From Eledone cirrhosa (taxonomy: Eukaryota), in assembly GCA_964016885.1 (NCBI GenBank), contig OZ024742.1:282534001-282598000 (forward strand): 64,000 nt of DNA. The letters run 5' to 3'. Each line of letters opens with the position of its first letter. The stretch's first letter is position 1. Both the position numbers and the translations under genes were made by a program. Under the pieces are notes generated by a model that was given only the letters and a program-made list of their open reading frames with translations, did no database searches and was not told the origin of the DNA. Shown in pieces: positions 2,473 through 64,000 of the stretch.

Positions 2473-5400
2473 CTACAGGATGGTATACAGAGAAGGCCCA
2501 TTTACACGAGCCATTCTCGCCACTATCACCCACCTTTCATAAAACTGCCTGTGGCCAAACACCTCTCTCTCCATTCTTATCCTTCTTCCGAAGTGATATC
2601 GGAAGAAGTAGACCAGACTATGGCCAGAGAGGAAGTTGCCTGACCTCAGACCTTTCAATCGTGTCCACCAAACAACCTCTTTCAACATGGCTATTACGCA
2701 CAGAAAAACCGCCTTTGCTTCCTTTGTGAAGAGGGGAGGCGGTTTGATTGTCATCACGGACTCGGCGGTCAATTTAATCGGCGCCACCCGCGACAGCAGT
2801 TGTTCGGCGTAGCCCCACAGATCAGCCACGCCCGGACATTGCACCAATGCGTGCGCTACGGTTTCTTCGTGACGCACGCATCTAGGGCAAATCTTTTTTG
2901 AGGGATCCCTGCCCGGGCGCCCGTGTCTGTAGAGCCTCTCTCGAACGGGTAGAGCCCCTCGGTAGCACTGCCAGGCCAGTGACTTCTGGAAGTTCTCCAT
3001 TGGTCCTGGGCCGAAAGTCCTACCGAACAGGCTGGCCAGTTCGTCTTCTTCCATGTCCAGCGACTCTCCAAGGGTGTCATCGCCCCTGCTAGCCACCAGC
3101 CCTCTATAGAATGATGAGGTGGATTCTCCACCGATGGCCCGGCCCGCTTGCCAGAGAGCCCTGAGCGCCTGAGCACACTCAGTGTGCCAGTCTCCCAGTT
3201 TTCCGGATCTTTGCTTGACCCAGGACTGTAGCTCGGTGAGTGAGACGAGTCTCGGAAAGGCTCGTTTCACGAACGGAGCCCACACCGGTTGACCAGTGAG
3301 GAATACCTGTAGGTGCCGTAGCCTTAATGCGTGCCTACGCATCATCAACCACGGCATCCCCAGCCCTCCTTTCGAAGGCAGCAGATGGATCTTCTCACCA
3401 TAGGAGGACGCTTCTTCCAAAGAAATTGGAAGAGCATGCGTTCCATGGTGGTGAGTGTTTCCTTAGGGCAAGGCACGACAGTCAGGCGGTAGTAAGTGAC
3501 GGACGCTATGTAAATGTTCGCCACCTCCGCTCGGCCTTTTAGGGACAGCTTACACTTGGCCCATTTCTGGGTTAGTGCAAACACCTTGTTCGTAACCTCG
3601 TTCCAGTTCTTTTCCACCTGGAGGTCCGGTCCAAACCAGACCCCAAGCAACTTTACCGGGCCCTCCGTCCAGTGTCCGACGACACCGTCAGGAGGCATCG
3701 GTTTGCCTCTCCACGTTCCGAGTTGCAGCCCGATGGATTTTTCCCGGTTCAGTTTCGCTCCTGACAACCTTTCGTACTCCTCCAGTAAGGTACCGATCGC
3801 CTCGATCTCCGAGTCGGTTGATACCATTACTGTTACGTCATCGGCGTAGGCCGACACCGCTTTGCTCAATCCTGGTTCCAGGGGGATACCCTGCAACAAC
3901 TCCAACTTCCTCAGTAAAGGCTCGAGAGTCAATACGTACAGAAGGGAGGAGAGAGGGCACCCCTGTCGAATGGATCGTGTGATTTCGAACGGCTTCGAAA
4001 GGTAGCCGTTCACCTTGATCCTAGAACAGATGTGGTTGCTATGTAGGGCAGTGATCCAGCCTCTGAAAACAGGACCGAACCCAGCCGCCGCTCGCACCGC
4101 ATCCAGGTAACCATGGTCGACCCTATCGAAGGCCTTAGACTGATCCAAGTTGATCAGGGCCCCACCGAAGCCGGGTTTGTTGCCAACCCTCTCTATGATG
4201 TATCGCATGAGGTGGAGGTTATCGTGAATGGACCTGGATGGGATAGCACATGTCTGCGCATCTCCCACCAGGCCACCCACGACAAGCGCCAACCTCTTTG
4301 CTAACACCTTGGCCAAAATCTTTAACTCTGTGTTTAGCAGGGTTATGGGCCGAAAATTATTTATACTATCCCCCTTGTTCTCGTCCTTCCTCACCAGCGT
4401 GACTACGCCCTTGGCTACAGAACAAGGAATTCTCCCGTTCTGCTGCCAATTGCAGTAGACCGCTTAGAGGAGTTCGGAGAAGAAGACCGGCATTGCTAAA
4501 TAAAGTTCGTAAGGTATACCATCGAGACCTGGAGATTTGCGTCTGCTGCATTGGCTCAGCGCATCTCCGATCTCATCAGCCGAGATTGGTCCCTCGCAGG
4601 ACTCTGCCTCTTTGTTCGAGAGACGCGGCAGGCCGTCGAGGTATGGACCGAAATCCACGCCCCGGCCCGGACCCTCGCCTCCCCCGAACAATCGGGCAAA
4701 GTGCTTTTGAAAGGCCTCGCACATCTGCTTAGGCTCCCGGATCACTCGTCCATCTTCGTCTTGCAACGACCGGATGGTGGATCGATTTCCACTTTTAGCT
4801 TCTGTCACGCGGGCCCATCCAACGGCTTTGGCCCCCTCATTACCTAGAGCACGTATTTTACTTCGAATGACGCAGCCTTCATGCTTTGCATCGAAAAACT
4901 GGTTCAAGGCCGTCCTCGATGCCAGCACTCTGGCCACATCTTCGCTCTTGATTGCCTCTTCTAATTTACCTGTTAATTCTTTCTCGTTTCTATTCCTATT
5001 GGCAGCTAACATCTTGCTATAACTTATTGATTCTGTTCTAATCTCTCTTTTGAGAGATGCCCACCATCGGTTGTTGACGATTGCACCCGTCAACCTCTCC
5101 TTAACTAATCTGCTAATCCGGTTTCAGTAAGTCTCTTTTGCCGGTAAAGACAAATTAAGTTTCCAGTAACCGGGACCCTGTCTATGTGTTTTCTCGAGAT
5201 TGACCACGCAGGTCACTAATTTGTGATCCGTGTAGCCAACCGTGCGCATTTCTGGACAGCTTAATATGTCCCTATCCTTACTTCTAACTAAGAATCTATC
5301 TAAGTACGATCTAGATTGACCACTGTGGTTTCTCCAAGTCCAGGTAGGCACAGTTGGAAAATCTAGTCGATATCTATCGACCAAGTTAAAACGGTCGAGT

Positions 5401-14061: not shown

Positions 14062-14109
14062 AAATAAAATAAATAAGTCAAATGTTTAAAATTTGGCTTC
14101 GTTTATTAC

Positions 14110-14160
14110 TGCTATATATATTTCGGTGACAGCCATCTTTGGCTGTGACCTCTTCAGGCA
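14110..14160 (-). ncRNA. Minimal type-I hammerhead ribozyme motif
   Basis: Exact reverse complement of 14341-14391. Confidence 0.75.
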
Positions 14161-14340
14161 GTCCGAATTAGTGTGGTAGAGACGAGTACACATGTTGTTA
14201 TTTCACTGAGGAACTGGAATCATATGATTCCAGTTCCTCAGTGAAATAACAACCCAACCAGGAACTGGGTATATCAGAGTATTGACAAAGTTATACACCT
14301 CAACAACATGTGTACTTGTCTCTACCACACTAATTCGGAC

Positions 14341-14391
14341 TGCCTGAAGAGGTCACAGCCAAAGATGGCTGTCACCGAAATATATATAGCA
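14341..14391 (+). ncRNA. Minimal type-I hammerhead ribozyme motif
   Basis: tgc CTGAAGA ggtcacagcc-aaagat-ggctgtcacc GAAA tatata TA gca: 3-bp stem I, conserved core, ~10-bp stem II, palindromic stem III. Confidence 0.75.
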
Positions 14392-14539
14392 ATAATAAAC
14401 GAAGCCAAATTTTAAACATTTGACTTATGTATTTTATTTTATTTTACATTACTCCGGATAACCAAACCAACCTGCGCACTTCGTCGAGTGCTCCAATCTG
14501 CATACTTAGGTGTTGGTATACAACCAACATATACTCAAA

Positions 14540-17217: not shown

Positions 17218-20200
17218 TCAACAGCAGTAACAACAGCAATAACAACCACAACATCAACAACATCAACAACAGCAACAACAACAACCACAACAGCAACAAC
17301 AGCAACAACAGCAACAACAGCAACAACAATAACAACCAAAACAGCAACAACAATAACAACCACAACAACCACAACATCAACAACAGCAACAATAACAACC
17401 AGAACAACCACAACATCATAAACAGCAACAAGAACAACTACAACAACCACAACAGTAACAATAACAAACATAACAACCACAACAACAACAATAACAACCA
17501 CGACAACCACAACAACAACAATAACAACCACAGCAACCACAACAATCACAACAACCACAACAACCACAACAACCACAACAACAACAATAACAACCACAAC
17601 AACCACAACAACCACAACAATAACAACCACAACAACCACAACAACCACAACAACAACAATAACAACCACAGCAACCACAACAACAACAATAACAACCACA
17701 ACAACCACAACAACCACAACAACCACAACAATCACAACAACCACAACAACCACAACAGCAACAATAACAACCACAACAACCAAAACAGCAACAATAATAA
17801 CCACAACAGCAACAATAACAACCACAACAACCACAACAGCAACACTAACAACCACAACAGCAACAATAACAACCAGAACATCAACAATAACAACCACAAC
17901 AGCAACAATAACAACCACGACAACCACAACAACCACAACAACCACAACAACCACAAGAACCACAACAACTACAAGAGCAACAATGACAGCCACAACAACC
18001 ACAACAGCAATAATAACAACCACACGACCAACAATAACAGCCACAACAGCAACAATAACAACCACAACATCAACACCAGCAACAATAACAACCACAACAG
18101 CAACAACAGCAACAACAACAGTAACAACAACAGTAACAACAACAGTAACAACAACAATAACAACAACAGTAACAACAACAGTAACAACAACAGTATCAAC
18201 AACACAAACAACAATAACAACAACAGTAACAACAACCGAAACAACAACAGAAACAAAAACAATAACAACAACAGTAACAACAACAGTAACAACAACAGTA
18301 ACAACAACAGTAACAACAACAGAAACAACAACAGTAACAACAACAGTAACAACAACAGAAACAACAACAGTAAAAACAACAGAAACAACAACAGTAACAA
18401 CAACAGAAACAACAATAACAACCACAATAACAACTACAGTAACAACAACAGTAATAACAACTGTAACAACAACAGTAACAACAACAGAAACAACAATAAC
18501 AACAACAGTAACAACAACAGAAACAACAGTAACAACAACAGTAACAACAACAGTAACAACAACAGTAACAACAACAGTAACAACAACAGTAACAACAACT
18601 GTAACAACAACAGTAACAACAACAGTAACAACAACAGTAATAACAACTGTAACAACAACAGTAACAACAACAGTAACGACAACAGTAACAACAACCGAAA
18701 CAACAACAGAAACAACAACAGTAACAACAACTGTAACAACAACAGTAACAACAACAGTAACAACAACAGAAACAACAACAGTAACAACAACAGTAACAAC
18801 AACAGTAACAACAACAGTAACAACAACAGAAACAACAACAGTAACAACAACAGTAACAACAACAGTAACAACAGTAACCACAACAATAACAACAACAGTA
18901 ACAACAACAGTAACAACAACAGTAACAACAACAGTAACAACAACAGTAACAACAACAGAAACAACAACAGAAACAACAACAGTAACAACAACAGTAACAA
19001 CAACAGTAACAACAACAATAACAACTACAGTAACAACAACAGTAACAACAACAGTAACAACAATAACAACAACAGTAACAACAACAGTAACAACAACAGA
19101 AACAACAACAGTAACAACAACAATGACAACAACACTAACAACTACAGTAACAACAACAGTAACAACAACAGTAACAACAGTAACCACAACAATAAAAACA
19201 ACAGTAACAACAACAGTAACAACAACAGTAACAACAACAGTAACAACAGTAACAACAACAGTAACAACAACTGTAACAACAACAGTAACAACAACAGTAA
19301 CAACAACAGTAACAACAACAGTAACAACAGTAACCACAACAATAACAACAACAGTAACAACAACAATAACAACAACAGTAACAACAACAGTAACAACAAC
19401 AGTAACAACAACAGTAACAACAACAGTAACAACAGTAACAACAACAGTAACAACAACAGTAACAACAACAGTAACAACAACCGAAAAAACAACAGTAACA
19501 ACAACAGTAACAACAACAGTAACAACAACAGTAACAACAACAGTAACAACAACAATAACAACAACAGTAACAACTACAGTAACAACAACAGTAACAACAA
19601 CAGTAACAACAACAGTAACAACAACAATAACAACAACAGTAACAACAACAGTAACAACAACAGTAACAACAACAATAACAACAACAGTAACAACAACAGT
19701 AACAACAACAGTAACAACAACAGTAACAACAACAGTAACAACAACAGTAACAACAACAGTAACAACAACAGTAACAACAACAGTAAAAACTACAGTAACA
19801 ACAACAGTAACAACAACAGTAACAACAACAGTAACAACAACAGTAACAACAACAGTAACAACTACAGTAACAACAACAGTAACAACAACAGTAACAACAA
19901 CAGTAACAACAACAGTAACAACAACAGTAACAACAACAGTAACAACAACAGTAACAACAACAGTAACAACAACAGTAACAACAACAGTAACAACAACAAT
20001 AACAACAACAGTAACAACAACAGTAACAACAACAGTAACAACAACAGTAACAACAACAGTAACAACAACAGTAACAACAACTGTAACAACAACAGTAACA
20101 ACAACAGTAACAACAGTAACAACAACAGTAACAACAACAGTAACAACAACAGTAACAACAACTGTAACAACAACAGAAACAACAACAGTAACAACAACAG

Positions 20201-21343
20201 TAACAACAACAGTAACAACAACAATAACAACAACAGTAACAACAACAGTAATAACAACAGTAACAACAACTGTAACAACAACAGAAACAACAACAGTAAC
20301 AACAACTGTAACAACAACAGTAACAACAACAGTAACAACAACAGTAACAACAACAGTAACAACAACAGAAACAACAACAGTAACAACAACAGTAACAACA
20401 ACAGAAACAACAGTAACAACAACAGTAACAACAACAGTAACAACAACAGTAACAACAACAGTAACAACAACAGTAACAACAACTGTAACAACAACAGTAA
20501 CAACAACAGTAACAACAACAGAAACAACAACAGTAACAACAACAGTAACAACAACAGTAACAACAACAGTAACAACAGTAACAACAACAGTAACAACAAC
20601 AGTAACAACAACAGTAACAACAACAGAAACAACAACAGTAACAACAACAGTAACAACAACAGTAACAACAACAGTAACAACAACAGTAACAACAACAGTA
20701 ACAACAACAGTAACAACAACAGTAACAACAACAGAAACAACAACAGTAACAACAACAGAAACAACAACAGTAACAACAACAGTAACAACAACAGTAACAA
20801 CAACAGTAACAACAACAGTAACAACAACAGAAACAACAACAGTAACAACAACAGTAACAACAACAGTAACAACAACAGTAACAACAACAGTAACAACAAC
20901 AGTAACAACAACAGTAACAACAACAGTAACAACAACAGAAACAACAACAGTAACAACAACAGTAACAACAACAGAAACAACAGTAACAACAACAGTAACA
21001 ACAAGAGTAACAACAACAGTAACAACAACAGTAACAACAACTGTAACAACAACAGTAACAACAACAGTAGCAACAACAGAAACAACAACAGTAACAACAA
21101 CAGTAACAACAACAGTAACAACAACAGAAACAACAACAGTAACAACAACAGTAACAACAACAGTAACAACAACAGTAACAACAACAGTAACAACAACAGT
21201 AACAACAACAGTAACAACAACAGTAACAACAACAGAAACAACAACAGTAACAACAACAGTAACAACAACAGTAACAACAACAGTAACAACAACAGAAACA
21301 ACAACAGTAACAACAACAGTAACAACAACAGTAACAACAACAG
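17218..21343 (+). repeat. 4.1-kb AAC-based minisatellite (12-bp unit ACAACAACAGTA; 5' part AAC/CAC/AGC variants)
   Basis: Direct inspection; accounts for the poly-N, poly-T and poly-V ORFs. Confidence 0.97.
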
Positions 21344-24107: not shown

Positions 24108-25037
24108 TGTGTAAGTGAACATGTGTAAGCGAACATGTGTAAGCGAACATGTGTAAGTGAACGTGTGTAAGCGAACATGTGTAAGCGAACATGTGTAAGC
24201 GAACATGTGTAAGCGAACATGTGTAAGCGAACATGTGTAAGTGAACATGTGTAAGCGAACATGTGAAAGTGAACATGTGTAAGTGAACATGTGTAAGCGA
24301 ACATGTGTAAGCGAACATGTGTAAGCAAACATGTGTAAGTGAACATGTTTAAGTGAACATGTGTAAGTGAACATGTGTAAGTGAATATGTGTAAGTGAAC
24401 ATGTGTAAGTGAACATGTGTAAGCGAACATGTGTAAGTGAACATGTGTAAGTGAACATGTGTAAGTGAACATGTGTAAGCGAACATGTGTAAGTGAACAT
24501 GTGTAAGTGAACATGTTTAAGTGAACATGTGTAAGTGAATATGTGTAAGTGAACATGTGTAAGTGAACGTGTGTAAGTGAACATGTGTAAGTGAACATGT
24601 GTAAGTGAACATGTTTAAGTGAACATGTTTAAGTGAACATGTGTAAGTGAACATGTGTAAGTGAATATGTGTAAGTGGACATGTGTAAGTGAACATGTGT
24701 AAGTGAACATATGTAAGTGAACGTGTGTAAGTGAACATGTGTAAGCGAACATATGTAAGTGAACATGTGTAAGTGAACATGTGTAAGTGAACATATGTAA
24801 GTGAATATGTGTAAGTGGACATGTGTAAGTGAACATGTGTAAGTGAACATGTGTAAGTGAACGTGTGTAAGTGAACATGTGTAAGTGAACATGTGTAAGT
24901 GAACGTGTTTAAGTGAACATGTGTAAGTGAATATGTGTAAGTGAACATGTGTAAGTGAACATGTGTAAGTGAACATGTGTAAGTGAACATGTGTAAGTGA
25001 ACGTGTGTAAGTGAACATGTGTAAGCGAACATGTGTG
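24108..25037 (+). repeat. 14-bp minisatellite (GAACATGTGTAAG[C/T])n, ~66 units
   Basis: Direct inspection. Confidence 0.98.
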
Positions 25038-33564: not shown

Positions 33565-33781
33565 CGTTTTCTGAATTTGTTTAGCAAGATTCTTTATCTG
33601 AAATCGTGTGTTGAAACCGATATTGTTATACTTTGGGAGGGTCATGTTGCCAATAAGAAACACACGCACCAGTTGCTTTCACTTCAATTTATTATAATAA
33701 ATTTATAAATTTAGTAATTTACAAATTTATAAATTTCTGGTTGGTTGGTTGGTTCCACAACCAGATAGTTGTTTATATATT

Positions 33782-33824
33782 GTCAAAGTTCTTTCGTCAC
33801 ACATTATGTGACCTCTTCAGTGAC
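33782..33824 (-). ncRNA. Minimal hammerhead motif (stem III imperfect)
   Basis: Reverse complement reads gtca CTGAAGA g gtcaca-taatg-tgtgac GAAA gaac TT tgac. Lies in a (TA)n-flanked insert at 33562-34145. Confidence 0.6.
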
Positions 33825-48250: not shown

Positions 48251-48699
48251 AACTTCGCAGCTAATACAATTCAACAGAAAACTAAATATGTTTCCTCACT
48301 AAATGTATTTGTGTTCGTGAATGTATGTTGCTTAAAGATATGTGGGTTCAGTGCATTCTGTCTTTGAGCGAGACACTGTGTTTTCTGTTGCTCTAATTCG
48401 CTCAACTGGAAAAAAAAGTTAGTTGAACCTGTGGTTCATACGGCCAGCTTTGTCGGACAATGTTACAGATTGAATCTCACTGAGAATTACGTTAACGGTT
48501 ACATGTATCTTTGGATTGCTCAGCCACTCGCCCATTAATACTCACGACAAAGCTGTTCCATTGGTTGAATGACTGGAACACTGGTTGTCGAAACCGACGG
48601 AGGTCTAACACACATGTTTTAAATTCTATAACTAGAAAAATAACACGAGCAACAATTTTAACTCAATGGAATCACAACAGCACCAAAATTAAGTGGTTT

Positions 48700-49060
48700 A
48701 ATAATTGTTTCTACTTTGGGCACAAGGCCAGCAATTATCCCAGTGTATTACTGGTACTTTATTTTATCGACCCCGTAAGGATGAAAGGCTAAGCTAACCC
48801 CGACGGGATTTGAACTCAGATCGTAAAGGGCCGTAACTCTATGCTGCAAAGCATGGCGTCCAAACCTCTACAGATACTGCCATTTAGTAATTGTTTCTAC
48901 TTTTGGCACAAGGCCAGCAATTACCCAGTGCATTACTGGTACTTTATTTTATCGACCCCGTAAGGATGAAAGGCAAAGTTAACCTCGGCGGGATTTGAAC
49001 TCAGAATAGCAAGAGCCGTAACTCTATGAGTGAAAGCATGTTACCGATACTGCCAATTCA
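48700..49060 (-). mobile_element. Tandem pair of tRNA-SINE copies
   Basis: 48700-48885 is closely similar to 48886-49060. Same family at 49633-49745 (+) and 53697-53822 (+). Confidence 0.8.
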
Positions 49061-50164
49061 TCCCAGAGTATTAAGCAAATGGAGAATTCTGTCCATCCTT
49101 TTCTAAACTTCTACTTCGAGAATTACTAGAATTTGGTAAGACACATATCACCGAACAAACCACATACCAACATAACCGATACCTATAGCGAAATTGCAAT
49201 GTCAGAATATCTGAGAAATCCGTCTAGGTTAAAAACAGGAAAATGATTTAGGGTAGGGGGGTAGGGCGGGGGATAACTCAATGAATGAATGGCAACCTAC
49301 ATATTTGCTCAGTTCGACATTGTAGAATTTTATCCATTCCTCTCTAAAAGTCTTCTTCGAAAGTGTCTAAAAACCGATAATAACATCACGAATGCAAGAT
49401 ATTTCTTACAGACACTGATAAATACAACAATATCAAATAGTATATGATTAACAGTTGTAATACATGTTTTTTATCCCAAGGGTTAGCGCTAATGGAGGAA
49501 GCAGACCTTTTATCAAAAGTATTTCGCTCATCGTCATCTCGACAGATTTTCTTTTAATTTATATCTAAACATGGTGTAAAAGAGGCCACAAGCGGTGGAC
49601 ACCTTGCTTTGCAGCATAGAAATACGTCTCTTTGCGTTCTGAGTTCAAATCCTGCTGAGGTTAACTTTGCCGTTCATCCTTACGAGGTCGAGGAAATAAA
49701 GTACCAGTCACGCATTGGGGTCGATTAAATCGAATTTCCTCTCCCATCAAATTTAATATGTTCTTTCTTGCAAGATATTAAGATATGAGTTGTGGAAAAT
49801 ATAGTTGCTCTTTCTGACAGGCTGAACACAGGCGTAGAGTTTTTTTAGTTGGTTTATTTAGGTGAAGCTTAGAAGATAGACTATGCCTCTATGTATTTCA
49901 GAAAAGGACGTAGTTGATATTTCTAGTAGCAGTAAGTAGAGAGAGAGAAAGAGAGAGAGAGAGTGAGAGAGAGAGTGAGTGAGAGAGGGAGAGAGCGAGA
50001 GAGAGATGTATAGACAAGAAAATAATAGACAGGCAGACAAAGACAAAGAACACCGCCATCTCTCAATACATCTACAGCTCCCGAAGTCTGTTGGCGAGTA
50101 TGCTTTTGCCAAAGAATCAGACGGCTTAAGTTGTTTCCTTGTATAGCAGTACCGTTGCCCTAAA

Positions 50165-50258
<94 letters not shown>

Positions 50259-50315
50259 GTACCACTAACACTCACATACACACATGCATGCACACTTCTA
50301 TATATATATAAATGT

Positions 50316-50413
<98 letters not shown>

Positions 50414-50468
50414 TTATATATATATATATATATACATAAATATATATGTATATATAAATATATATATT

Positions 50469-50520
<52 letters not shown>

Positions 50521-50538
50521 CACATAGATATACACACT

Positions 50539-50571
<33 letters not shown>

Positions 50572-50592
50572 TTACACATAGATATACACACT

Positions 50593-50642
<50 letters not shown>

Positions 50643-50966
50643 AGTGTATATCTATATATATTTATTACATATGTATATACATACGTGTGTGTATATGTGT
50701 GTGCGTGTGTGTGTAAGATTACAAATACATGTGACTGAATTGTAGACACCGATGCAGAGACCAGCTGATAATAACTGAAACATTTCTTGGGCCAAATTAG
50801 TGCCAAATTAGGTATAAAAGATGTACTTAATTTGGCATTAATTTGGCTTATATATTTCTAGGTCAACGTGTAATCTACGTTTCATGATTTTGAACACCTT
50901 TGTTTTGTAATCTTCCTTATTATGTTGTGTTGTTAATACTATAGTTTTTGATGTTTTTGATGAGGG

Positions 50967-51051
<85 letters not shown>

Positions 51052-51178
51052 TTGTATGTGTGCGTGTGTGTGTGTGTATAGATATTCATTCGCGCGCGCG
51101 CACAGACACACGCACATATGCATGTATATATATGTGTATATATATGTGTGTGTATATATATATATGTATATATATATG

Positions 51179-51219
<41 letters not shown>

Positions 51220-51381
51220 TGCTCCAATCAGTACACAAACACCCAGCTGACACCCTAAACTGAACGCTAACCTGTACTCATGACTCCTGCCAAACCAAAC
51301 CGTATCACGTTCCAAATTCGACAAAGCAAACGTGGACCACCCATCTTACCAAACTCGGCATATATATATATATATATACAC

Positions 51382-51517
<136 letters not shown>

Positions 51518-51904
51518 CGTGTGTGTAGCTAGCTAAATAGAGAGATAATAAACGTCAACAATAAAACAAAAACCCATGTGAACAGTATAATACAATTAAT
51601 GGTCTCTAAGTTTAACGCTTGGTAAAGCTGGAAAAGAGTCTTAACGTTTCTGATACTAGTCCTTCACCAAAAGATATAAAAAGAGGAGAGAAGGAGAAGA
51701 AGAAAGACTGACGCGAGTAGCAAATCAAACGAGGAAAAGGGCTGAGTGGTATTATTTGGACCTAATCCTCTGGCTATCTTTATAAGGGAAAAAGGCAAGG
51801 ATTTTCTTGTTAGGATTTAGTTGCGTTAATAAAGTATATATTGCCTACTACTGTGTATTGGGTTTCCTTTCAAACTGTTGTATTTAACTTCTATGTCAGA
51901 GAAT

Positions 51905-52150
51905 ATCTATGTTGGTGAAATAGTTCTGTCTTTATCTAATAAAGTGGAAAATTCATGTGAGTCTTTAGTCGTTAAAATTCGTACATCCTCACTTTTATCA
52001 TCATTTTCATCAGCACAATGCTGTTCTATCTCCATTAGGTCCTCATGAGATAGTTCTACGCTGTGTGATTCAAGTAACTCAACTACATAATTTTCATTTA
52101 TTTCATGAAATATATCTTGGTATGCCAGCCCAAAATCTCCTGACGAATAT
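51905..52150 (-). pseudogene. pogo/Tigger-like transposase C-terminal remnant
   Basis: EINENYVVELLESHSVELSHEDLMEIEQ resembles the Tigger acidic C-terminal region. Confidence 0.6.
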
Positions 52151-52209
52151 TTCGTATCGGCTTCCCTAAACCCTGAAAGATTTGCTCTCATTGCAATAAT
52201 GATAAACCA

Positions 52210-52358
<149 letters not shown>

Positions 52359-52402
52359 TGCACATACATATATACATTTAAATATATATATACATATACG
52401 TA

Positions 52403-52503
52403 CAGGGGGTCCCCAAAAGATGTATACAAACTTCAACAGCATTCTTATAAATATTGCCTGTACAGTTAATCAAAATATTTATATATTTTGGGGGGACACC
52501 ATG
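52403..52503. mobile_element. Tc1/mariner-type MITE (~100 bp)
   Basis: TA|CAGGGGGTCCCCAAAA ... TTTTGGGGGGACACCATG imperfect TIRs. Confidence 0.6.
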
Positions 52504-52517
52504 TGTATATATATATA

Positions 52518-52719
52518 TAGGAAAAGAGTTAGGACCCCAACGGCTGAGCTCCGGCCGTTTCGATAGCTAGATCCGAACAGTTCGGATCTAGCTGTTGAAA
52601 CGGCCAGAGCTCAGCCGTCGAGATCCTGACTCTTTCCCTATTACCCAAACTACTACCCTATGTATCGAGTACTCTGGTGCGTTATGGTCCAACTGCTATT
52701 TTACCACACCTTCTTTGTT
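52518..52719 (+). mobile_element. Fold-back element family F1, copy 2 (divergent subfamily)
   Basis: Palindrome 52518-52640 centred on 52579. Tail gagtactctggtgcgttatggtcc is shared with copy 1. TA flanks. Confidence 0.85.
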
Positions 52720-53947
52720 ATATATATACATGTATATATGTTAGGTATTTTATACGGCTTCTAGGACCCAGATATTTTTTAAACTAATAGTTTAGAATCT
52801 GGCAAATCCAGTCGCTTTGTTTTTATTTTTTCAGCATAACTGTTTGCACATCCGTTTTAATATTACAGTTCTTGCGCACAGTTAAACAACTCTACATTTA
52901 CGTCATTATTCGCAACAATTATTTACCATTTACATTTAATAATATGTCTAAAATGCCATCAAAAAGATATACTTCTAGTAGAAAAGGAAATATTTTACGC
53001 TCAGTACACAAAGAATATAAAGTAGCTTATTAACATTTTCAATGGATCAAAAAAGATCAAATAAAACGGTATTAGAAGTGAATTAGTATTAAGTACACTT
53101 TTTTTCCTTTAGATGTATTGTATATTTTCTATTGAGAGAATTATCGTACCTTAGAGGAGTTACATATCCATGAAATAGGCAGAAGACATATAAAGATCGT
53201 TTCTAAAGTGACGATCGTTTAAATAAATGAGGTTAAATGATTAGCATCTTTATTCATCATTACTAATATTTTTGTAATTATATACTTTTTTTAATGAATC
53301 AGCACCATTATAAAACGCGATTGTCATATTTAGTATAAATTTACCCTTTAGTGACCGTACTTTTAATGAAATACTTTCCATTTCGATTAATTAATGAAGA
53401 AGCTTGAAGGAGTTACAAAGAAAATATTTATTATTTCATAACTGAAATAGTACTTCGACATACATTTATTCTATAAAATTATATTGGAAGATCTTAATTT
53501 AAATAGGAAACACTTCAAAATGTGCGGTTTTGTATCATAGAATAAAAGTCGGTTTTCGACGAGTTGGTATCAAAATGGCCCATAAAACCAGAATACACAG
53601 AAATTCAGGTCATCTCCAGTCACAAATCGAATTTGAAACGTACATTTATTATTAGTATCTGTACACTATGCTCTCCAGCATAGAGTTACGCCCCTTTATG
53701 GTCTGAGTTCAAATCCCGCCAAGGTTAACTTTGCCTTTCATCCTTACGGGGTCGATAAATAAAGTGTCAGTAATGCACTGGGATAATTGCTGGCCTTGTG
53801 CCAAAAGCAGAAACAATTATTATTATGCATATATATGATTAAAGTACAATTTAAAAAAGTTTATTTCCAATTATGTGGTTTAATTTCATATCGTAACACG
53901 TTTTTACAAATCGACGTTTACAGACCCTCATTACATATATTTTGTAT

Positions 53948-54005
<58 letters not shown>

Positions 54006-54019
54006 CCTGTTTCAATCAA

Positions 54020-54680
54020 CAAAAACACGGGGTGTGCAAAATTTCAGCTCAATCGGACAACTGTTAGGCGACCCTCAAACGCCTTGAAGTTGGAACATAA
54101 TATACGCAACGATTAATTCTGTTCAAAAGCGGTATACTATATCGATCATTTTCTTTTTTTCTTCTTAGATAAATTTATCTGAACACATCCAGGCAACCCC
54201 AGCAAATGTTTAAAAACGTTCTGAATCAAATTTACCAATAGTTAATTTGAAAAGTTCCATGAAAAACTGAAGAAATATTAGGTTTTCTTAAAGCACACAA
54301 CTTCTATAAGAGCAACGCATTTTTATTTACAACAATAATTTCTATAGAATCAAAAACATAATGTGAACACTGAACACTGAATATTGAACATTATTTTTGC
54401 ATAAGACAGGATTTAGTGGCAGTTGGGTATGTTTTACGGTTTTCGGTAACGTTCTGTAAAACAAATTGTTTCTCAATTTCATCTTTTGTGAGAATGTTAG
54501 TGTAATCCTGAATGACACCTCTTTCTGCAACATCATTCACAACTATCATCTCAATTTTTCAAGTCCACTTATGTAACCAGGATCATCTTTCCATGTTGAA
54601 GGGTCTTTGTCGAGGAAATCGATGTGGATAAAAAATCTCGTGAAGAAAGTTTTTGTACCAGGAGTTACAAAAGACGAAAA
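54020..54680 (-). pseudogene. DNA transposase C-terminal remnant (hAT-like; assignment uncertain)
   Basis: FLDKDPSTWKDDPGY then, frameshifted, VVNDVAERGV..ILTKDEIEKQFVLQ. Confidence 0.5.
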
Positions 54681-55055
54681 CTCGATGTTTGCGAAGGAAG
54701 AAAAGTCATTTTGGTGCAGAATGTACCTCTTCAGTTGATTTTTTTCTTCTTCCCCTTCTTCACCTTTGTCTGCTTCCAGCATAACTTGAGCAATATTTGT
54801 CTTAACCTTACCTTGCTCTCCTTTAATCCTTGCTCTCCTTTTATCCTTGCTCTCCATTTCGCCTTGCTCTCCTTTTCTCATTGCTCTATTTGCTCTCCTC
54901 TTCTCATTGCCCTCATTGCTCTCCTCTTCTCCTTGTATCTATGTACTTGTTTATATACAAATACAACGAGAAAAGGGGAGCAAGGAGAAATATGAAAGCA
55001 AGAATAGTAAGGAGAGTATATATATACATATTATATATATATATATGTATACACA

Positions 55056-55125
<70 letters not shown>

Positions 55126-55173
55126 TATGTATGTATACGTACATACATATATGTATACAGACGTACAGTAGTA

Positions 55174-55223
<50 letters not shown>

Positions 55224-55586
55224 CATACAGGTACACATATATATATATGTACGTATCAGTTTAGCGGACGTTTATTATAACGCCCGCTTTGTCCGTTTGT
55301 AAACAAACGGACAGCCTGATTTATGCCGTACGGTATTAAGGCAACCACGTCACCTTTTTGTTCAACACTGACACAGGAACGATGTACTAGTTTCAAGCTT
55401 CTTAGCTATCATCACCACCGTATACCCTTCTGCCAGATGGTTGAACGTTCGAAATTATATACTTTCCTTATGAAAATTAACTAGTTTCAAGCTTTTTAGC
55501 TATATGCAAATTAGGCTGCTCAGCCGTTAATTTTCATAAGGAAATTATATACTTTCGAACGTTCAACCATCTGGCAGAAGGGTATA

Positions 55587-55627
55587 TGGTGCTGATGATA
55601 GCTAAGAAGCTTGAAACTAGTACATCG
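55587..55627 (+). ncRNA. Minimal type-I hammerhead ribozyme motif
   Basis: tggtg CTGATGA t agct-aaga-agct t GAAA ctag TA catcg. Confidence 0.8.
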
Positions 55628-55778
55628 TTCCTGTGTCAGTGTTGAACAAAAAGGTGACGTGGTTTCCTTAACACCGTACGGCATAAATTCAGGCTGTCCG
55701 CTTGTTTACAAACTGACAAAGCGGGCGTTATAATAAACGTCCGCTAAACTGATACGTACATATATATATGTGTACCTG

Positions 55779-55834
<56 letters not shown>

Positions 55835-56070
55835 TACTACTGTACGTCTGTATACATATATGTATGTACGTATACATACATACTTACATTTAAGTAAGTG
55901 CCGTACTAAGAGTGAGAAATGAAATTTCGTTTCATCCTATTTCGACTTATCGTTTTCGGTGCGCCTGGCCGACTGAACTCACTCGATATGCACATTAGGC
56001 TGCTCAGCCGTTAATTTTCATAAGGAAAGTATATAGTTTCGAACGTTCAACCATCTGGCAGAAGGGTATA

Positions 56071-56111
56071 CGGTGCTGATGATAGCTAAGAAGCTTGAAA
56101 CTAGTACATCG
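56071..56111 (+). ncRNA. Minimal type-I hammerhead ribozyme motif
   Basis: cggtg CTGATGA t agct-aaga-agct t GAAA ctag TA catcg. Confidence 0.8.
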
Positions 56112-56261
56112 TTCCTGTGTCAGTGTTGAACAAAAAGGTGACGTGGTTGCCTTAACACCGTAGTGCATAAATCAGGCTGTCCGTTTGTTTACAAACGGAC
56201 AAAGCGGGCGTTATAATAAACGGCCGCTAAACTGATACGTATATATATATATGTGTACCTG

Positions 56262-56297
<36 letters not shown>

Positions 56298-56736
56298 TAC
56301 TACTGTACGTCTGTATACATATATGTATGTACGTATACATACATACTTACATTTAAGTAAGTGCCGTACTAAGAGTGAGAAATGAAATTTCGTTTCATCC
56401 TATTTCAACTTATATATATATATATATTACTCAATACCGAGTACTCATTTCAAATATAATGGGGAAGTTGCCTTCCCCATTATATTTATTGTCACTTATC
56501 CTTCTAATAACAAGAATAAGTCTGAACAAGTTTTTAATTTAAGAGAAAATTATATACGAGATGAAGAAATTTTATCTGAAAGAAATGACTTTCCGGACGA
56601 AAACTTCAAAATTTCACGGTCCGTGAGGGTCACCTTGCAGTTGCCTGCTTGAGCTAAAACTTTGCATATTTCGTTGTTTTTTTTTGTTAATTGTAATAAG
56701 ATAGAGGGGTGGGAACTAAACTTTTAGAAAGTTGAA

Positions 56737-56795
<59 letters not shown>

Positions 56796-57500
56796 TATAT
56801 AGATATATATTATATATATATTATATATATATATATATGCGTATAGATACAGACACACATACATAGCACAATTGTATGTACATTGTATCATTGCTAATCA
56901 TAAAACTGATGATTAATCATGTGAAAGCGAGCATTTGACAACAATATCTATGAAACTGATAATTTCTTGAATTTTTCTATTAATACCATGCATTAACATT
57001 TATAAATTACGTTAACGTTTACATACTAATATGATATTACACTCAAGTAACTATATGTATAGTTAATAAATGAAACAAACAAAACACAGGAGGCAATTTT
57101 TACAGTTATAAGGTTCACGCTTGGTGGAAGTGGAGGATATGTGATCATCAACATCATCATCAACGAATTAAGTTAGGTTTGCAAATATATATATATATGT
57201 GCGTGTGCGTGTGTGTGTGTGTCTGTGTGTGTGTGTGTGTGTGTGTATACATATAACTCACCTAAATATGCTTGAAATATTTCATTTTGATTATTGAATA
57301 CTTAGCTTCTAAGAACTAACAATTTCAGGAATATGTGTGTATGACTATATACAAACATGTGTTTGATTATGTACACTGCGCATGTTTATGTATGAGTACA
57401 AATCTATCACTTTTCCTATGTAAATAGAAAAGTACGCTATATCAAGTGAAAAATGAAAGTTTAAATAGATTAAACGTCACATGTGTATTTATGGTTGTGT

Positions 57501-57627
<127 letters not shown>

Positions 57628-57902
57628 TATAATATACAATATATATACATATATATAATATACAATAACACAGACACACATGATGTTTGTATATGATTGT
57701 GTATAAGTTTGTGCCTGATTGTGTATGTGTGTGTGTGTATGTGTGTATGTGTGTATGTGTCTCTATATGTGTGTATATGAGTAAATGTGTCTGTCTATTC
57801 TCATTAATACTGAACTTCAATAGCATTCACCAAAGACAAGTGCCAGTTGCTAACTGGACGATCGATAAGACTAGCTTTTATTGAAATGCAGCCAAAAATA
57901 CA

Positions 57903-57926
57903 AATAACAACAACAATAATAATAAC

Positions 57927-57987
<61 letters not shown>

Positions 57988-58081
57988 GTAATGAAGTAAA
58001 AACAATCAAAAATGGATAAATATGTTGAGAATCAAATGCTGAATATATCGGTAAAGAGCATAAGATTAATAATAACAGTAG

Positions 58082-58150
<69 letters not shown>

Positions 58151-58229
58151 CAACAGTAGTAGTAGCAGTAGTAGTAGTAGTAGTAGTAGCAGCAGCAGTA
58201 GCAGCAGCAGCAGCAGTAGTTGTAGTATC

Positions 58230-58285
<56 letters not shown>

Positions 58286-58298
58286 CAGCAGCAGTAGT

Positions 58299-58335
<37 letters not shown>

Positions 58336-58340
58336 ACAAC
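57903..58340 (+). repeat. (AAT)n and (TAG/CAG)n microsatellites
   Basis: Direct inspection. Confidence 0.95.
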
Positions 58341-58496
58341 ATGTAAATTATAATAACATCTCTTCAAATAATAATAGATATATTAATATTTGAAATGAAC
58401 TGCTAACATTAATAATAGTATTTACAATACTGAACGTTAAAGTCAAATGATAATGTTAATAATAACCTTGGCATGAATAAGGATATTATTAATAAT

Positions 58497-58860
58497 GCTT
58501 TCTTTATTAACCACAAGGGTTTACATAAAGTAGACATTAAGGACAGTACAGGACAATACAGGACGGTACAAATGGCCATTTATGCGTGTAAAAAACAAAA
58601 GCAGAGGATGTAACAAAAAAAATAACAATGAAAAATTCCCCAATAGGGGGGAGACTTCCGAGGGACATTCGTGGAGAAAGCCCATTAAAAAGCGACCCTG
58701 ACCACCAGGGCAAGTGCCCTCTCCCAGTTTTCCACCTTTAATTCACAGACACATACTCAGAGTAGGCCCATTCATTCGGGCCATACTTGCTTCTCTCACC
58801 CATCTTTCAACAAAATGCTGGGAAGAGAGCACTTCCCTCTCTACCCTGATTTTCCTTTTT
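58497..58860 (-). mobile_element. 5'-truncated Tx1-like copy (ORF2 end + 3'UTR) with TSD
   Basis: KIRVEREVLSSQHFVERWVREASMARMNGPTL matches the copy 2 ORF2 end. TTATTAATAAT at 58486-58496 and 58859-58869. Confidence 0.8.
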
Positions 58861-59193
58861 ATTAATAATAGTAATGCTATTAATAATTATGAATAATAAA
58901 AGTATTGATATTGAATCTAATTCGAATAATAAAGAAGTTGATGAACACGATAATGATGTTGCTAATAGCGAACTAGGTATACATACATATACACATTCCC
59001 ACACCCACACAACCTCCACGTATTGCTGTAGTTAGTATTTTATCACTCTAGCAAATTTAGTCCTTACGATTCGAACACATGTATATTTATATTAGTGTTC
59101 ATCTCTCTTGTTTATTCAATTATATTGTACGGCTCGGAAAAGCTTTTTTCTTAGAGCTATTTAATTGTAAGAGACTACTCTGAGTTCTTAACT

Positions 59194-59261
<68 letters not shown>

Positions 59262-59266
<5 letters not shown>

Positions 59267-59462
59267 GAAGGAGTTGTGGTAAGGAACCAGATGGACCATA
59301 ACGCACCAGAGTACTCAATACTTAGGGTAGTAGAGTGGGTAATAGGAGAAAGTTTGACCTCGACGGCAGAGCTCAAGCTGTTTCGACGGCTATTTCTGGA
59401 CTTTAAGTCCAGAAATAGCCGTCGAAACGGCTTGAGCTCTGCAGTCGGGGTCATACTTTCTC
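59262..59462 (-). mobile_element. Fold-back element family F1, copy 3
   Basis: Palindrome 59346-59462 centred on 59404; tail on the left; TA flanks. Confidence 0.85.
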
Positions 59463-59466
59463 ATAT

Positions 59467-59507
<41 letters not shown>

Positions 59508-59667
59508 TCTAAAGTCTGTCTTAAGCCAGAAGGCTCATTTGGCCGGTGCTTATCCCGGTTTCATGGTTTCATGGCATGAAGTGACTGAGAGTACAAGACT
59601 TCCCTCTGGAGCAACGTGAAATGAACTGTTTTGCTCAAGAACACGACAAGCAACCCAGGAATCGGAC

Positions 59668-59734
<67 letters not shown>

Positions 59735-59817
59735 ATACCTACATGCATACACACATACATAAATACATATACATACATACATACATACATACATACATAC
59801 ATACATACATACATACA

Positions 59818-59846
<29 letters not shown>

Positions 59847-59848
<2 letters not shown>

Positions 59849-60359
59849 TGGCTGAAAGTCTGCTAACAGTATTGCAATCGCTTGTCAGATTATAGAGTCT
59901 GGTGCATATTGAGGCTACGGCCAGCCACACGAACCTGTAACAGATCCTGAACAAGCAATGTGGTTTGAAGGTTTTTAAATGTGGAAAGGCCTTGCACTCG
60001 ACCCATCCCACTTTCTGACCATCGAAAATACTACCCCAAAAGGAGAACTGGTCAACATCATCGGATACTTCCGAAGCTGCAGTTTTTTCACTGAGTTTCC
60101 ATGTCTGAGGAAGGTGTTGTGACGAGAACTGGGGGCCTTTCACTCCCAGGTGAAAAAAAAACAAAACTACTGTTTGGATGACCGTTGACTGCTGGGTTCC
60201 TCCGCCCTTCACCGGGTCTTGTATTTTATCCCGCAGGGTGTCTAAATATCACCCTCCTCACCAAGCGAGCTTGGGGTTGCCAGTTTAGTGGCCGACGGCC
60301 CGACCATGAGACAGGTTGTACAGGGTTACATGTTACCAGTAGCACCCGAGAGTGACCTG
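59847..60359 (-). mobile_element. Short (TACA)n-flanked element B, diverged relative of element A
   Basis: Reverse-complement 5' end caggtcac..gtgctactggtaacatgta..acaacctgtctcatgg..ctaaactggcaacccc is shared with 30673. Confidence 0.8.
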
Positions 60360-60507
60360 ACATACATACATATACCTAGATATCTATATACATACATACA
60401 TACATATACCTAGATATCTATATACATACATACGTAAATACATACATACATACATACATACATACATACATACATACATACATACATACATACATACATA
60501 CATACAT

Positions 60508-60808
60508 GGTGGCTGCCAACTCGTTTTCGAGTACGGCCACTACTTTATATCCATGTAGGAGAACCCCTACCGATGCGCTAAACGAGTGTGACTTTTTAGT
60601 CCAGCCAGCGTCTTGAAAACTCTGGTACAAACACTACACTTGTGACAATTATTGACACATAGTGCTGGGCCCATGGTACCATGTGACGACAAGTGCAGAG
60701 AGATCTCCAGATATAAAGCAATGCCTGTGCCGTGAAGCTTTTATAGTGAGCAAAGGCACTAAACAAAGCCAGTCCCACTCTCTTAACAAAGAGAGTGGGA
60801 CTGGCTTT
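60508..60808 (-). mobile_element. 5'-truncated copy of element A with terminal hairpin
   Basis: Near-identical to the reverse complement of ~31000-31278; 20-bp inverted repeat at 60765-60808. Confidence 0.85.
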
Positions 60809-61392
60809 ACATACATACATACATATATACCTACATAACTATATACATATATACAGATGCGAATGTAGAATTTATTCAGATTTACCCATGTTACTACATT
60901 CATTAAAATCAAACGGTAAAGAACAAAACCAAACAACTCAATTCAAAATAATCCTTCAGTGAAAATATTATTCCACAGATCTTAAGTCCACGCCGTTAGC
61001 ATACAATATTTCCGTAGTTGATGTTTATTTCTCACTTTTGTCCTACTTCCTCTTCATCTATTTCCTCTTGTTTTCGTTTTTTTTTTTTCATTTTCTCTTT
61101 CTAATTCTTTTTTTATTTCTGTTGTTTTTTCTCTTCTTTGTTTGTTTGTCTTTTTGTTACAGATACTTTTATTCAAAACCCCTCACCAGCCACCTAAATA
61201 TTAACAACAATTTCGTCGACATCATCAGCGTTAGCAGAATCTGCGTTAACATCGACGTCGGCGCCATTACATCCATCGTTTCATATGTTTTGCACCTCTC
61301 ACTATTTTCCTCAACATTAACAGCAATGCCGTCGACAACATCGCCATTAGTAGATTGAACATCAATACTGATGTTACTGTAGGCGCCATAGT

Positions 61393-61910
61393 TGTGTGTG
61401 TGTGTATTTGTGTGTTTGTGTGTTTGTGTATTTGTGTGTTTGTGTGTTTGTGTGTTTGTGTATTTGTGTGTTTGTGTATTTGTGTATTTGTGTATTTGTG
61501 TATTTGTGTATTTGTGTGTTTGTGTGTTTGTGTATTTGTGTATTTGTGTGTTTGTGTGTTTGTGTGTTTGTGTGTTTGTGTGTTTGTGTATTTGTGTGTT
61601 TGTGTGTTTGTGTGTTTGTGTGTTTGTGTGTTTGTGTGTTTGTGTATTTGTGTGTTTGTGTGTTTGTGTATTTGTGTATTTGTGTATTTGTGTGTTTGTG
61701 TGTTTGTGTGTTTGTGTGTTTGTGTGTTTGTGTGTTTGTGTATTTGTGTATTTGTGTATTTGTGTATTTGTGTGTTTGTGTGTTTGTGTATTTGTGTGTT
61801 TGTGTGTTTGTGTATTTGTGTATTTGTGTATTTGTGTGTTTGTGTGTTTGTGTATTTGTGTATTTGTGTATTTGTGTATTTGTGTATTTGTGTATTTGTG
61901 TATTTGTGTG
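61393..61910 (+). repeat. 8-bp satellite (TTTGTGT[A/G])n
   Basis: Direct inspection. Confidence 0.97.
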
Positions 61911-61957
61911 CACGCGTGTTATATATATATATATACATATATACATATATATATACA

Positions 61958-62002
<45 letters not shown>

Positions 62003-63795: not shown

Positions 63796-64000
63796 GTAGA
63801 ATATTAAATGTTAAGTGTTAATTGAACAAGTACTTTCATGCTTTCGCAATCTTCAGGTTCATAATGTGTGGTGACAGTCAAGTTTGAAATTTTCAACAGT
63901 TGAAAATTGCAAACTTGACTGTCACCACACATTATGAACCTGAAGATTGCGAAAGCATGAAAGTACTTGTTCAATTAACACTTAACATTTAATATTCTAC
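63796..64000. mobile_element. Palindromic element with two divergent hammerhead motifs (extends to window end)
   Basis: Near-perfect palindrome centred on 63898; hammerhead motifs at 63823-63861 (-) and 63935-63973 (+). Confidence 0.8.
63935..63973 (+). ncRNA. Minimal type-I hammerhead ribozyme motif
   Basis: tgaac CTGAAGA t tgc-gaaa-gca t GAAA gtac TT gttca. Confidence 0.7.

Follow-up and report, generated by a model that had tools for sequence, protein, structure and literature searches.

Metazoan non-LTR retrozymes, in the account of PMC7229834, are noncoding tandem units with type I hammerhead ribozymes that occur as monomers, dimers, and long arrays. A Penelope-like element (PLE) has been proposed as their mobilizer, and bioRxiv 10.64898/2026.07.22.740005 argues for an origin from PLEs. 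The transcription of animal retrozymes and the enzyme that mobilizes them are stated as open in both sources. Members of the PLEs themselves, such as PAc/Poseidon (PMC11167929) and the Hydra clade (as described in PMC8557442), combine a hammerhead with partial tandems and an inverted, 5'-truncated arm, together with a tail on one end, AT-rich or (TA)n targets, and stem-loops at initiation sites. The inverted arm is a described PLE feature and the tail usually measures 30 to 40 bp (PMC8557442); the tail reflects two internal start sites of the reverse transcriptase (RT), as shown in vitro (PMC11167929). Hammerhead tandems with an internal small-RNA promoter, in which one unit transcribes the next, are also described in PMC2220036 and PMC6765202: the promoter of newt satellite 2 is of snRNA type and is used by Pol II, and that of the schistosome hammerhead repeat is a SINE-like Pol III promoter.

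We analyzed a window of 64,000 nucleotides from Eledone cirrhosa (contig OZ024742.1, positions 282,534,001 to 282,598,000), in which a preliminary description had proposed two tandem hammerhead units that would release a 484-nt RNA. The anatomy given there held on re-reading. Both direct units contain CTGATGA (at 55592 and 56076), a 14-nt stem II region, GAAA, and CTAGTA, the predicted cuts have exactly the coordinates and the spacing claimed, and the inverted third unit does carry a core substitution, reading GTGATGA (C3G). The element was said to lack an ORF, and the longest ATG-started ORF in 55116-56413 encodes 54 amino acids; the reported (TA)n tracts are found within the element and at the ends of both arms. 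An snRNA-type promoter motif and a tail had been overlooked (Table 1). The three units differ from each other by 3.7%, and the 63-nt tail is bounded by ACTTA motifs ending at 56349 (site 1) and 56412 (site 2). C3G abolished hammerhead cleavage in PAc (PMC11167929), and the inverted-arm hammerhead is therefore predicted to be dead. The 24-nt fragment where the arms join likely arose by a template switch. Unit 1 keeps an intact motif at its truncation point, which in principle would let the locus give rise to the 484-nt monomer. An assembly artifact, the caveat attached to the tandem, is unlikely, as both the tandem and the inverted arrangement are found again at many loci and the family is present in the public run X1. 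This run, which is possibly not independent of the assembly, covers 30 of 30 bins of a 349-nt stretch; of two further runs, X4 placed no contigs and X5 five. In the 13-mer of unit 2, A is the common letter at position 55993.

TABLE 1 Features of the hammerhead insertion in the window and of an intact PLE ORF elsewhere in the genome
Feature	Position	Strand	Remarks
Whole insertion	55122..56412	.	One inverted arm and a direct arm of ~1.9 units; both 3' ends outward into (TA)n
Inverted, 5'-truncated arm	55122..55481	-	3' end (ACTTA, then TA repeat) is tail site 1
Inverted-arm hammerhead, GTGATGA (C3G)	55385..55415	-	Sequence; predicted dead
24-nt inverted hammerhead fragment, stem II to stem III	55480..55503	-	Where arms join
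Octamer-containing 13-mer TATGCAAATTAGG, unit 1	55503..55515	+	Match to host U6/U6atac/RNase MRP motif
TATA box, unit 1	55546..55551	+	43 nt past 13-mer start
Predicted +1, unit 1 (C/AG)	55576	+	47 nt ahead of predicted cut
Type I hammerhead 1	55581..55631	+	Core 55592-55622; predicted cut after 55622 (GUA)
Cut-to-cut monomer, 484 nt (predicted RNA)	55623..56106	+	Internal (TA)n 55783-55830
13-mer of unit 2, rare variant TATGCACATT	55987..55999	+	TATA 56030; predicted +1 56060
Type I hammerhead 2	56065..56115	+	Core 56076-56106; predicted cut after 56106
PLE-type tail, 63 nt, with hairpin	56350..56412	+	Direct arm ends here in (TA)n
Intact 750-aa Hydra-like PLE ORF	L124 2174-4423 (G000:C4:336033000-336040000)		RWR, DKT, CxCX5C motifs; C-terminal GIY-YIG

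Genome-wide pattern searches over the 3.0-Gb assembly show that the window locus is a single insertion belonging to a larger family, in which the exact 31-nt hammerhead has 479 copies, against 0 for a reversed control. A pattern with alternative letters at the stem II base retrieved 11,385 matches (24 for the control) representing sister subfamilies, of which 1,063 fit the C-subfamily pattern, and a further variant hammerhead pattern gave 368 matches, again against 24 for the control. A single unit from each of three subfamilies (T, C, and G) was taken for comparison, and these aligned along their entire length, with identities of 84% between T and C and 59% between T and G. In the T subfamily, the cleavage triplet is GUA and stem II has a basal U-U. 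The G subfamily, the largest with approximately 10,000 matches (for example, L046 and L049), has a canonical G-C pair at that position and mostly a GUU cleavage triplet. Units of 430 to 491 nt are laid out as monomers, short tandems, and one array of at least 69 units, and in tandems or arrays of 3 to at least 69 units there is no ORF between the units, which are joined head to tail directly. Units within the array of at least 69 differ by 4.5% on average. Periodic variation along this array (G000:C2:60568000-60606000; L032-L035) suggests higher-order repeats.

The element carries no ORF with the RT and GIY-YIG domains of an autonomous PLE. Copies attached to such an ORF, a prospect raised in the preliminary description, were not found among the loci inspected, which are a minority of the family, and the search for an ORF-linked version via sister patterns returned only more noncoding subfamilies or chance matches. 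Widely spaced hammerhead pairs that might have flanked an ORF (L031 and L032-L036) proved to be arrays, duplications, or elements inserted into the remains of other PLEs. In L031, a SINE-like repeat with a short duplication, putatively of tRNA origin, is nested at the identical spot in two tandem units (2312-2450 and 3012-3150) and was therefore copied along with the unit; the same repeat is present in the window at about 53690-53820 and 48697-49040.

In the direct units of the window, the base of stem II is a U-U mismatch, and stem III consists of either a single base pair closed by a CUAG loop or, when two units pair, a palindromic duplex of 6 bp, for which the computed energy of the ACUAGU intermolecular pairing is -4.8 kcal/mol. 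Among the axolotl retrozymes described in PMC7229834, HHR_Amex1 shares the palindromic stem III and HHR_Amex2 the U-U at the base of stem II; the T-subfamily hammerhead unites the weak stem III of the former with the U-U of the latter, and both features weakened cleavage in axolotl. Rfam gave a single match, Hammerhead_HH9 at 18.1 bits (E 0.046), far short of its gathering score of 52, and the 66-nt hammerheads form stems I and II on folding but do not exceed shuffles in stability (z 0.13 and 0.27). Given the weak Rfam match and the ordinary folding energy, it is covariation that carries the argument for a real hammerhead. The fetched loci contain 286 hammerhead matches, 82 of them distinct (overlapping loci counted repeatedly), and in these, compensatory changes between subfamilies occur in stem I (G-C to A-U and C-G to U-A) and in stem II (A-U to U-A, G-C to U-A, and C-G to G-C), which indicates that the hammerhead fold is under selection. 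Together with the 479 exact copies against none for the control, these changes mark the hammerhead as more than a chance match. Invariance of the core was built into the search pattern and was not counted as evidence; the lower variation of the core (1.0% versus 2.6% elsewhere) was likewise discarded as a conservation signal, being biased by the choice of loci through the exact hammerhead.

Dispersed insertions of the family have inverted arms with variable 5' truncation and fixed 3' ends. These 3' ends do not fall at the hammerhead cut and lie instead at two internal sites approximately 55 to 64 nt apart, both of which carry a short match to TA repeats. We examined 26 T loci (30 initial loci minus five overlaps or duplicates, plus the locus L037), of which 14 end at site 1 on one side and site 2 on the other and none uses the identical site twice, and 36 of 39 site ends continue into (TA)4. 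The same combination was found in 7 of 27 C-subfamily loci, with no same-site pairs. A further 40 loci, drawn from 100 places listed for the exact 31-nt hammerhead, comprise 8 with both sites, 24 with a single site end, and 8 that are complex or unassigned. Pooled across the T, C, and further loci, each site is used once in all 29 loci in which both ends lie at a site. The window insertion obeys the same rule: its inverted arm ends at 55122 (site 1) and its direct arm at 56412 (site 2). As the insertions end in (TA)n, no target-site duplication can be read.

The 5' ends are spread over the unit, from -261 to +109 around the cut (95 placeable ends, 65 loci), which is in keeping with a circular template. 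Within this sample, none of the 95 lies exactly at the cut, and the ends do not pile up at the predicted start site. A genome-wide pattern for arms with no hammerhead upstream gave 15 matches, a count without a denominator, of which 10 are arms starting exactly at the cut, 1 of these belonging to the same subfamily as the window insertion; the other 5 have mutated hammerheads.

The layout is that of a PLE, with an inverted, 5'-truncated arm, partial tandems, and a tail on one end. The proposal in the preliminary description that a noncoding hammerhead element is moved in trans by a PLE gains from the two-site tail, the inverted arms, and the (TA)n target. The observed pattern is that the two arms end at different sites, and priming by a PLE protein at one site per strand would be the mechanism behind it. 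Compared with PLEs, the element differs in lacking an ORF and in its tail of approximately 55 to 64 nt, longer than the typical length given above. Its tandem type I hammerheads in consecutive units, lack of protein-coding capacity, and unit of a few hundred nucleotides are those of a retrozyme; the 484-nt unit exceeds the 170 to 400 nt given in PMC7229834 and lies within the 51 to 972 bp of bioRxiv 10.64898/2026.07.22.740005. By sequence criteria, the element is therefore both a non-LTR retrozyme and a nonautonomous PLE. A PLE is the putative mobilizer here as it is for the retrozymes described so far; in the present family, the link is an insertion signature (the two-site tail and inverted arms) rather than homology to pLTRs.

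Following PLE fragments that lie close to several copies, we reached an abundant PLE family in the same genome, for which 150 of 25,675 first-look candidates were scored. Intact ORFs of 745 to 779 amino acids are present in 12 of 12 fetched loci. Pfam gave no family match for the 750-aa ORF in Table 1; its RWR, DKT, CxCX5C, and GIY-YIG motifs fit the definition of the Hydra clade, which targets (TA)n (as given in PMC8557442). This Hydra-like PLE has its own, different hammerhead, and 26 of its 39 TA-followed ends (some loci overlap) lie at two positions, +57 and +144, giving a two-site tail of 87 nt. The same two-site mechanism thus appears to operate in this genome without sequence shared with the unit, as we found no homology between the unit and the pLTR of the one intact family compared. 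A PLE protein search near family loci likewise found no autonomous element with a homologous pLTR. With one PLE family compared, the Hydra-like PLE is a partner candidate only.

The longest block invariant among T, C, and G units is TATGCAAATTAG, which exceeds either hammerhead block. We predicted its snRNA-gene nature first and then fetched the host genes: TATGCAAATTAG plus a TATA box is also found upstream of host U6, U6atac, and RNase MRP genes. The motif lies at -77 to -79 and the TATA box at -30 in 12 of 20 U6 loci from three independent places, comprising two U6 genes that stand alone and 10 of the 16 copies in an array setting, and it is also present at the best-scoring of 6 U6atac loci and at the single RNase MRP gene. 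It is absent upstream of host U1 (0 of 14 loci) and U2 (0 of 14 loci). The element matches the consensus TATG[CG][AT]AAT[TG]AG and has a TATA box; the consensus appeared in 9 of 5,000 shuffles of a unit and, outside the element, in none of 1.16 million strand-bases (matches near a hammerhead having been filtered as element). In the remaining 6 of 16 U6 array copies, the SINE-like repeat of L031 replaces the promoter motif. The host Pol III genes have the octamer-like motif unusually close, at -78, and host U1 and U2 genes carry TCAGT near -57 and a TATA-like box near -31 (L155-L182), a layout that is unusual for Pol II snRNA genes.

The distance from motif to TATA box is 43 nt in T and C and 42 to 44 nt in G, versus 47 to 49 nt in the host Pol III genes; because it is 4 to 6 nt shorter, we do not file the element as a member of the type 3 Pol III promoters. 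In Drosophila, a shorter spacing marks Pol II genes. The spacing of insect snRNA promoters is tightly conserved, according to PMC1761439. All three subfamilies have a pyrimidine-AG 30 nt past the TATA box, placing the predicted start 47 nt (T and C) or 59 nt (G) ahead of the cut. T-runs of 4 to 6 nt are found within units of every subfamily (for example, one G array has T5 at +274, and a TGG unit has T4 at +56), which weakened an exclusively Pol III interpretation that had relied on avoidance of T-runs. Since whole units, T-runs included, must be transcribed to be copied, Pol II is favored, and we consider it slightly the better bet that Pol II transcribes the unit, as in newt satellite 2, with transcription by Pol III a possible but rather improbable arrangement. 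Relative to the newt and schistosome repeats as described in PMC2220036 and PMC6765202, the motif matches the Pol III genes U6, U6atac, and MRP rather than U1 and U2, its spacing is shifted, and the element has PLE-type tails, which those descriptions do not include. The snRNA-type motif is also absent from the Hydra-like pLTR of the same genome.

The locus L037 speaks most directly to the template. It contains 3 inverted and 5 direct units, and all 8 are identical over 340 columns and share two private variants absent from every other dispersed unit, with the nearest other unit 1.1% away among 204 units compared. We regard L037 as apparently a very young insertion, for which a circular monomer copied repeatedly onto both strands would be a simple explanation; an unseen homogeneous source array also fits. 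L037 is a single case, and most other loci are older and uninformative: at most loci with several units, these are no closer to one another than to the nearest unit elsewhere. The junction of a circle is the same as the genomic head-to-tail junction, and divergent RT-PCR, suggested in the preliminary description, would therefore be unable to prove a circle here.

Overall, we lean somewhat toward a multicopy noncoding repeat with a type I hammerhead, two-site (TA)n ends, and a U6-like motif that is likely transcribed from within, cut, circularized, and copied by a PLE. The 13-mer and TATA box would probably start RNA 47 nt ahead of the cut, each unit driving the next, and read-through RNA past the T-runs would be required for copying entire units. 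Hammerheads would pair through the ACUAGU palindrome and cut weakly, with some monomers ligated into circles, a step on which our judgment is evenly divided. A PLE protein would then cut both (TA)n strands and prime cDNA at two internal sites approximately 60 nt apart, one per strand, and the product would be a pair of arms, variable in length, that face outward and meet at their 5' ends. That the RT/GIY-YIG protein is donated by a Hydra-clade PLE seems to us neither probable nor improbable. Long arrays would have grown additionally at the DNA level. We entertain more doubtfully a fuller version, in which a lineage of more than 12,000 units captured the U6-type promoter module of the host, respaced it so that read-through from every unit transcribes the following one, and moves as circles, through rolling-circle two-site TPRT by a Hydra-clade PLE that shares its structure and not its sequence; if true, this would be an snRNA-promoter "SINE" of Penelope elements, moving as a circle.

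The same element and PLE machinery could instead work from linear, uncleaved read-through RNA of tandem sources, with circles irrelevant to mobility and the hammerhead cutting rarely or only with the help of protein. Hammerhead cleavage is dispensable for insertion of PAc, whose main substrate is unprocessed, uncleaved RNA (PMC11167929), and 1 of 9 Xenopus retrozyme dimers was cleaved in vitro, as reported in bioRxiv 10.64898/2026.07.22.740005. Insertions of the family routinely include uncut hammerheads together with upstream sequence, the T subfamily has weak stems II and III, and the array of at least 69 units is a possible source. However, the 8 identical units of L037 match none of the 204 sampled while the known array is heterogeneous (mean 4.5%), the 5' ends show no pile-up at the predicted start, and the compensatory stem changes argue for a fold under selection; a linear template is thus an alternative that we take seriously and think somewhat unlikely. 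It is very unlikely that the copies are merely 5'-truncated 3' ends (pLTRs) of an autonomous PLE. PLE copies are mostly 5' truncated and form partial tandems, according to PMC8557442, and the inspected loci are the minority mentioned above, but arrays of 3 to at least 69 head-to-tail units have no unique sequence between them, long 5' arms enter another unit and not an ORF, and the PLE fragments near copies belong to Hydra-like families with a different hammerhead. Least credible is a satellite duplicated at the DNA level, or an assembly artifact, with an incidental hammerhead match, for which large heterogeneous arrays, the sub-threshold Rfam score, and the ordinary folding energy could be cited. 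It is contradicted by dispersed insertions whose arms are inverted and variably truncated at the 5' side while their 3' ends stay fixed, by covarying stems, and by the presence of the family in run X1, and the end pattern largely refutes it.

The preliminary description did not recognize the element as a described family. Nor did we find a description of this particular family in the literature; the kind, the non-LTR retrozymes, is covered in PMC7229834. The literature likewise yielded no published combination of a U6-like promoter with a PLE tail (Repbase, Dfam, and supplementary lists being outside the scope of this search), and a term search of the main text of an octopus repeat annotation (PMC13282606) found no mention of hammerheads or retrozymes. 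The kind of element and its PLE link are already published, and what appears to be new is a U6-like promoter motif on such an element. Because the basic kind is known, the surprise is moderate. On the open points of transcription and mobilizing enzyme, the family contributes a tail that is genomic evidence of PLE mobilization, a concrete putative promoter whose start can be predicted, a candidate protein encoded by intact ORFs of the same genome, and, in L037, a very young insertion of 8 units that would suit copying from a circle.

The window holds further repeats. An Rfam scan of 50000-62000 returned only microsatellite-driven microRNA matches among 150 of the 152 matches listed. At 63820-63976, an inverted pair of a different type I hammerhead, with the palindromic stem III AGTACT, adjoins (TA)n; as this hammerhead recurs in L036 and L079, it represents another PLE-type family. 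Hammerhead-core matches at 14107-14394 and 33778-33820, one of them an inverted pair and both near (TA)n, lack the U6-like motif and are likely ends of other PLE families. The window also contains a 4-kb tandem array with a 12-nt period (17219-21343) and a 14-nt minisatellite of 66 copies (24108-25036).
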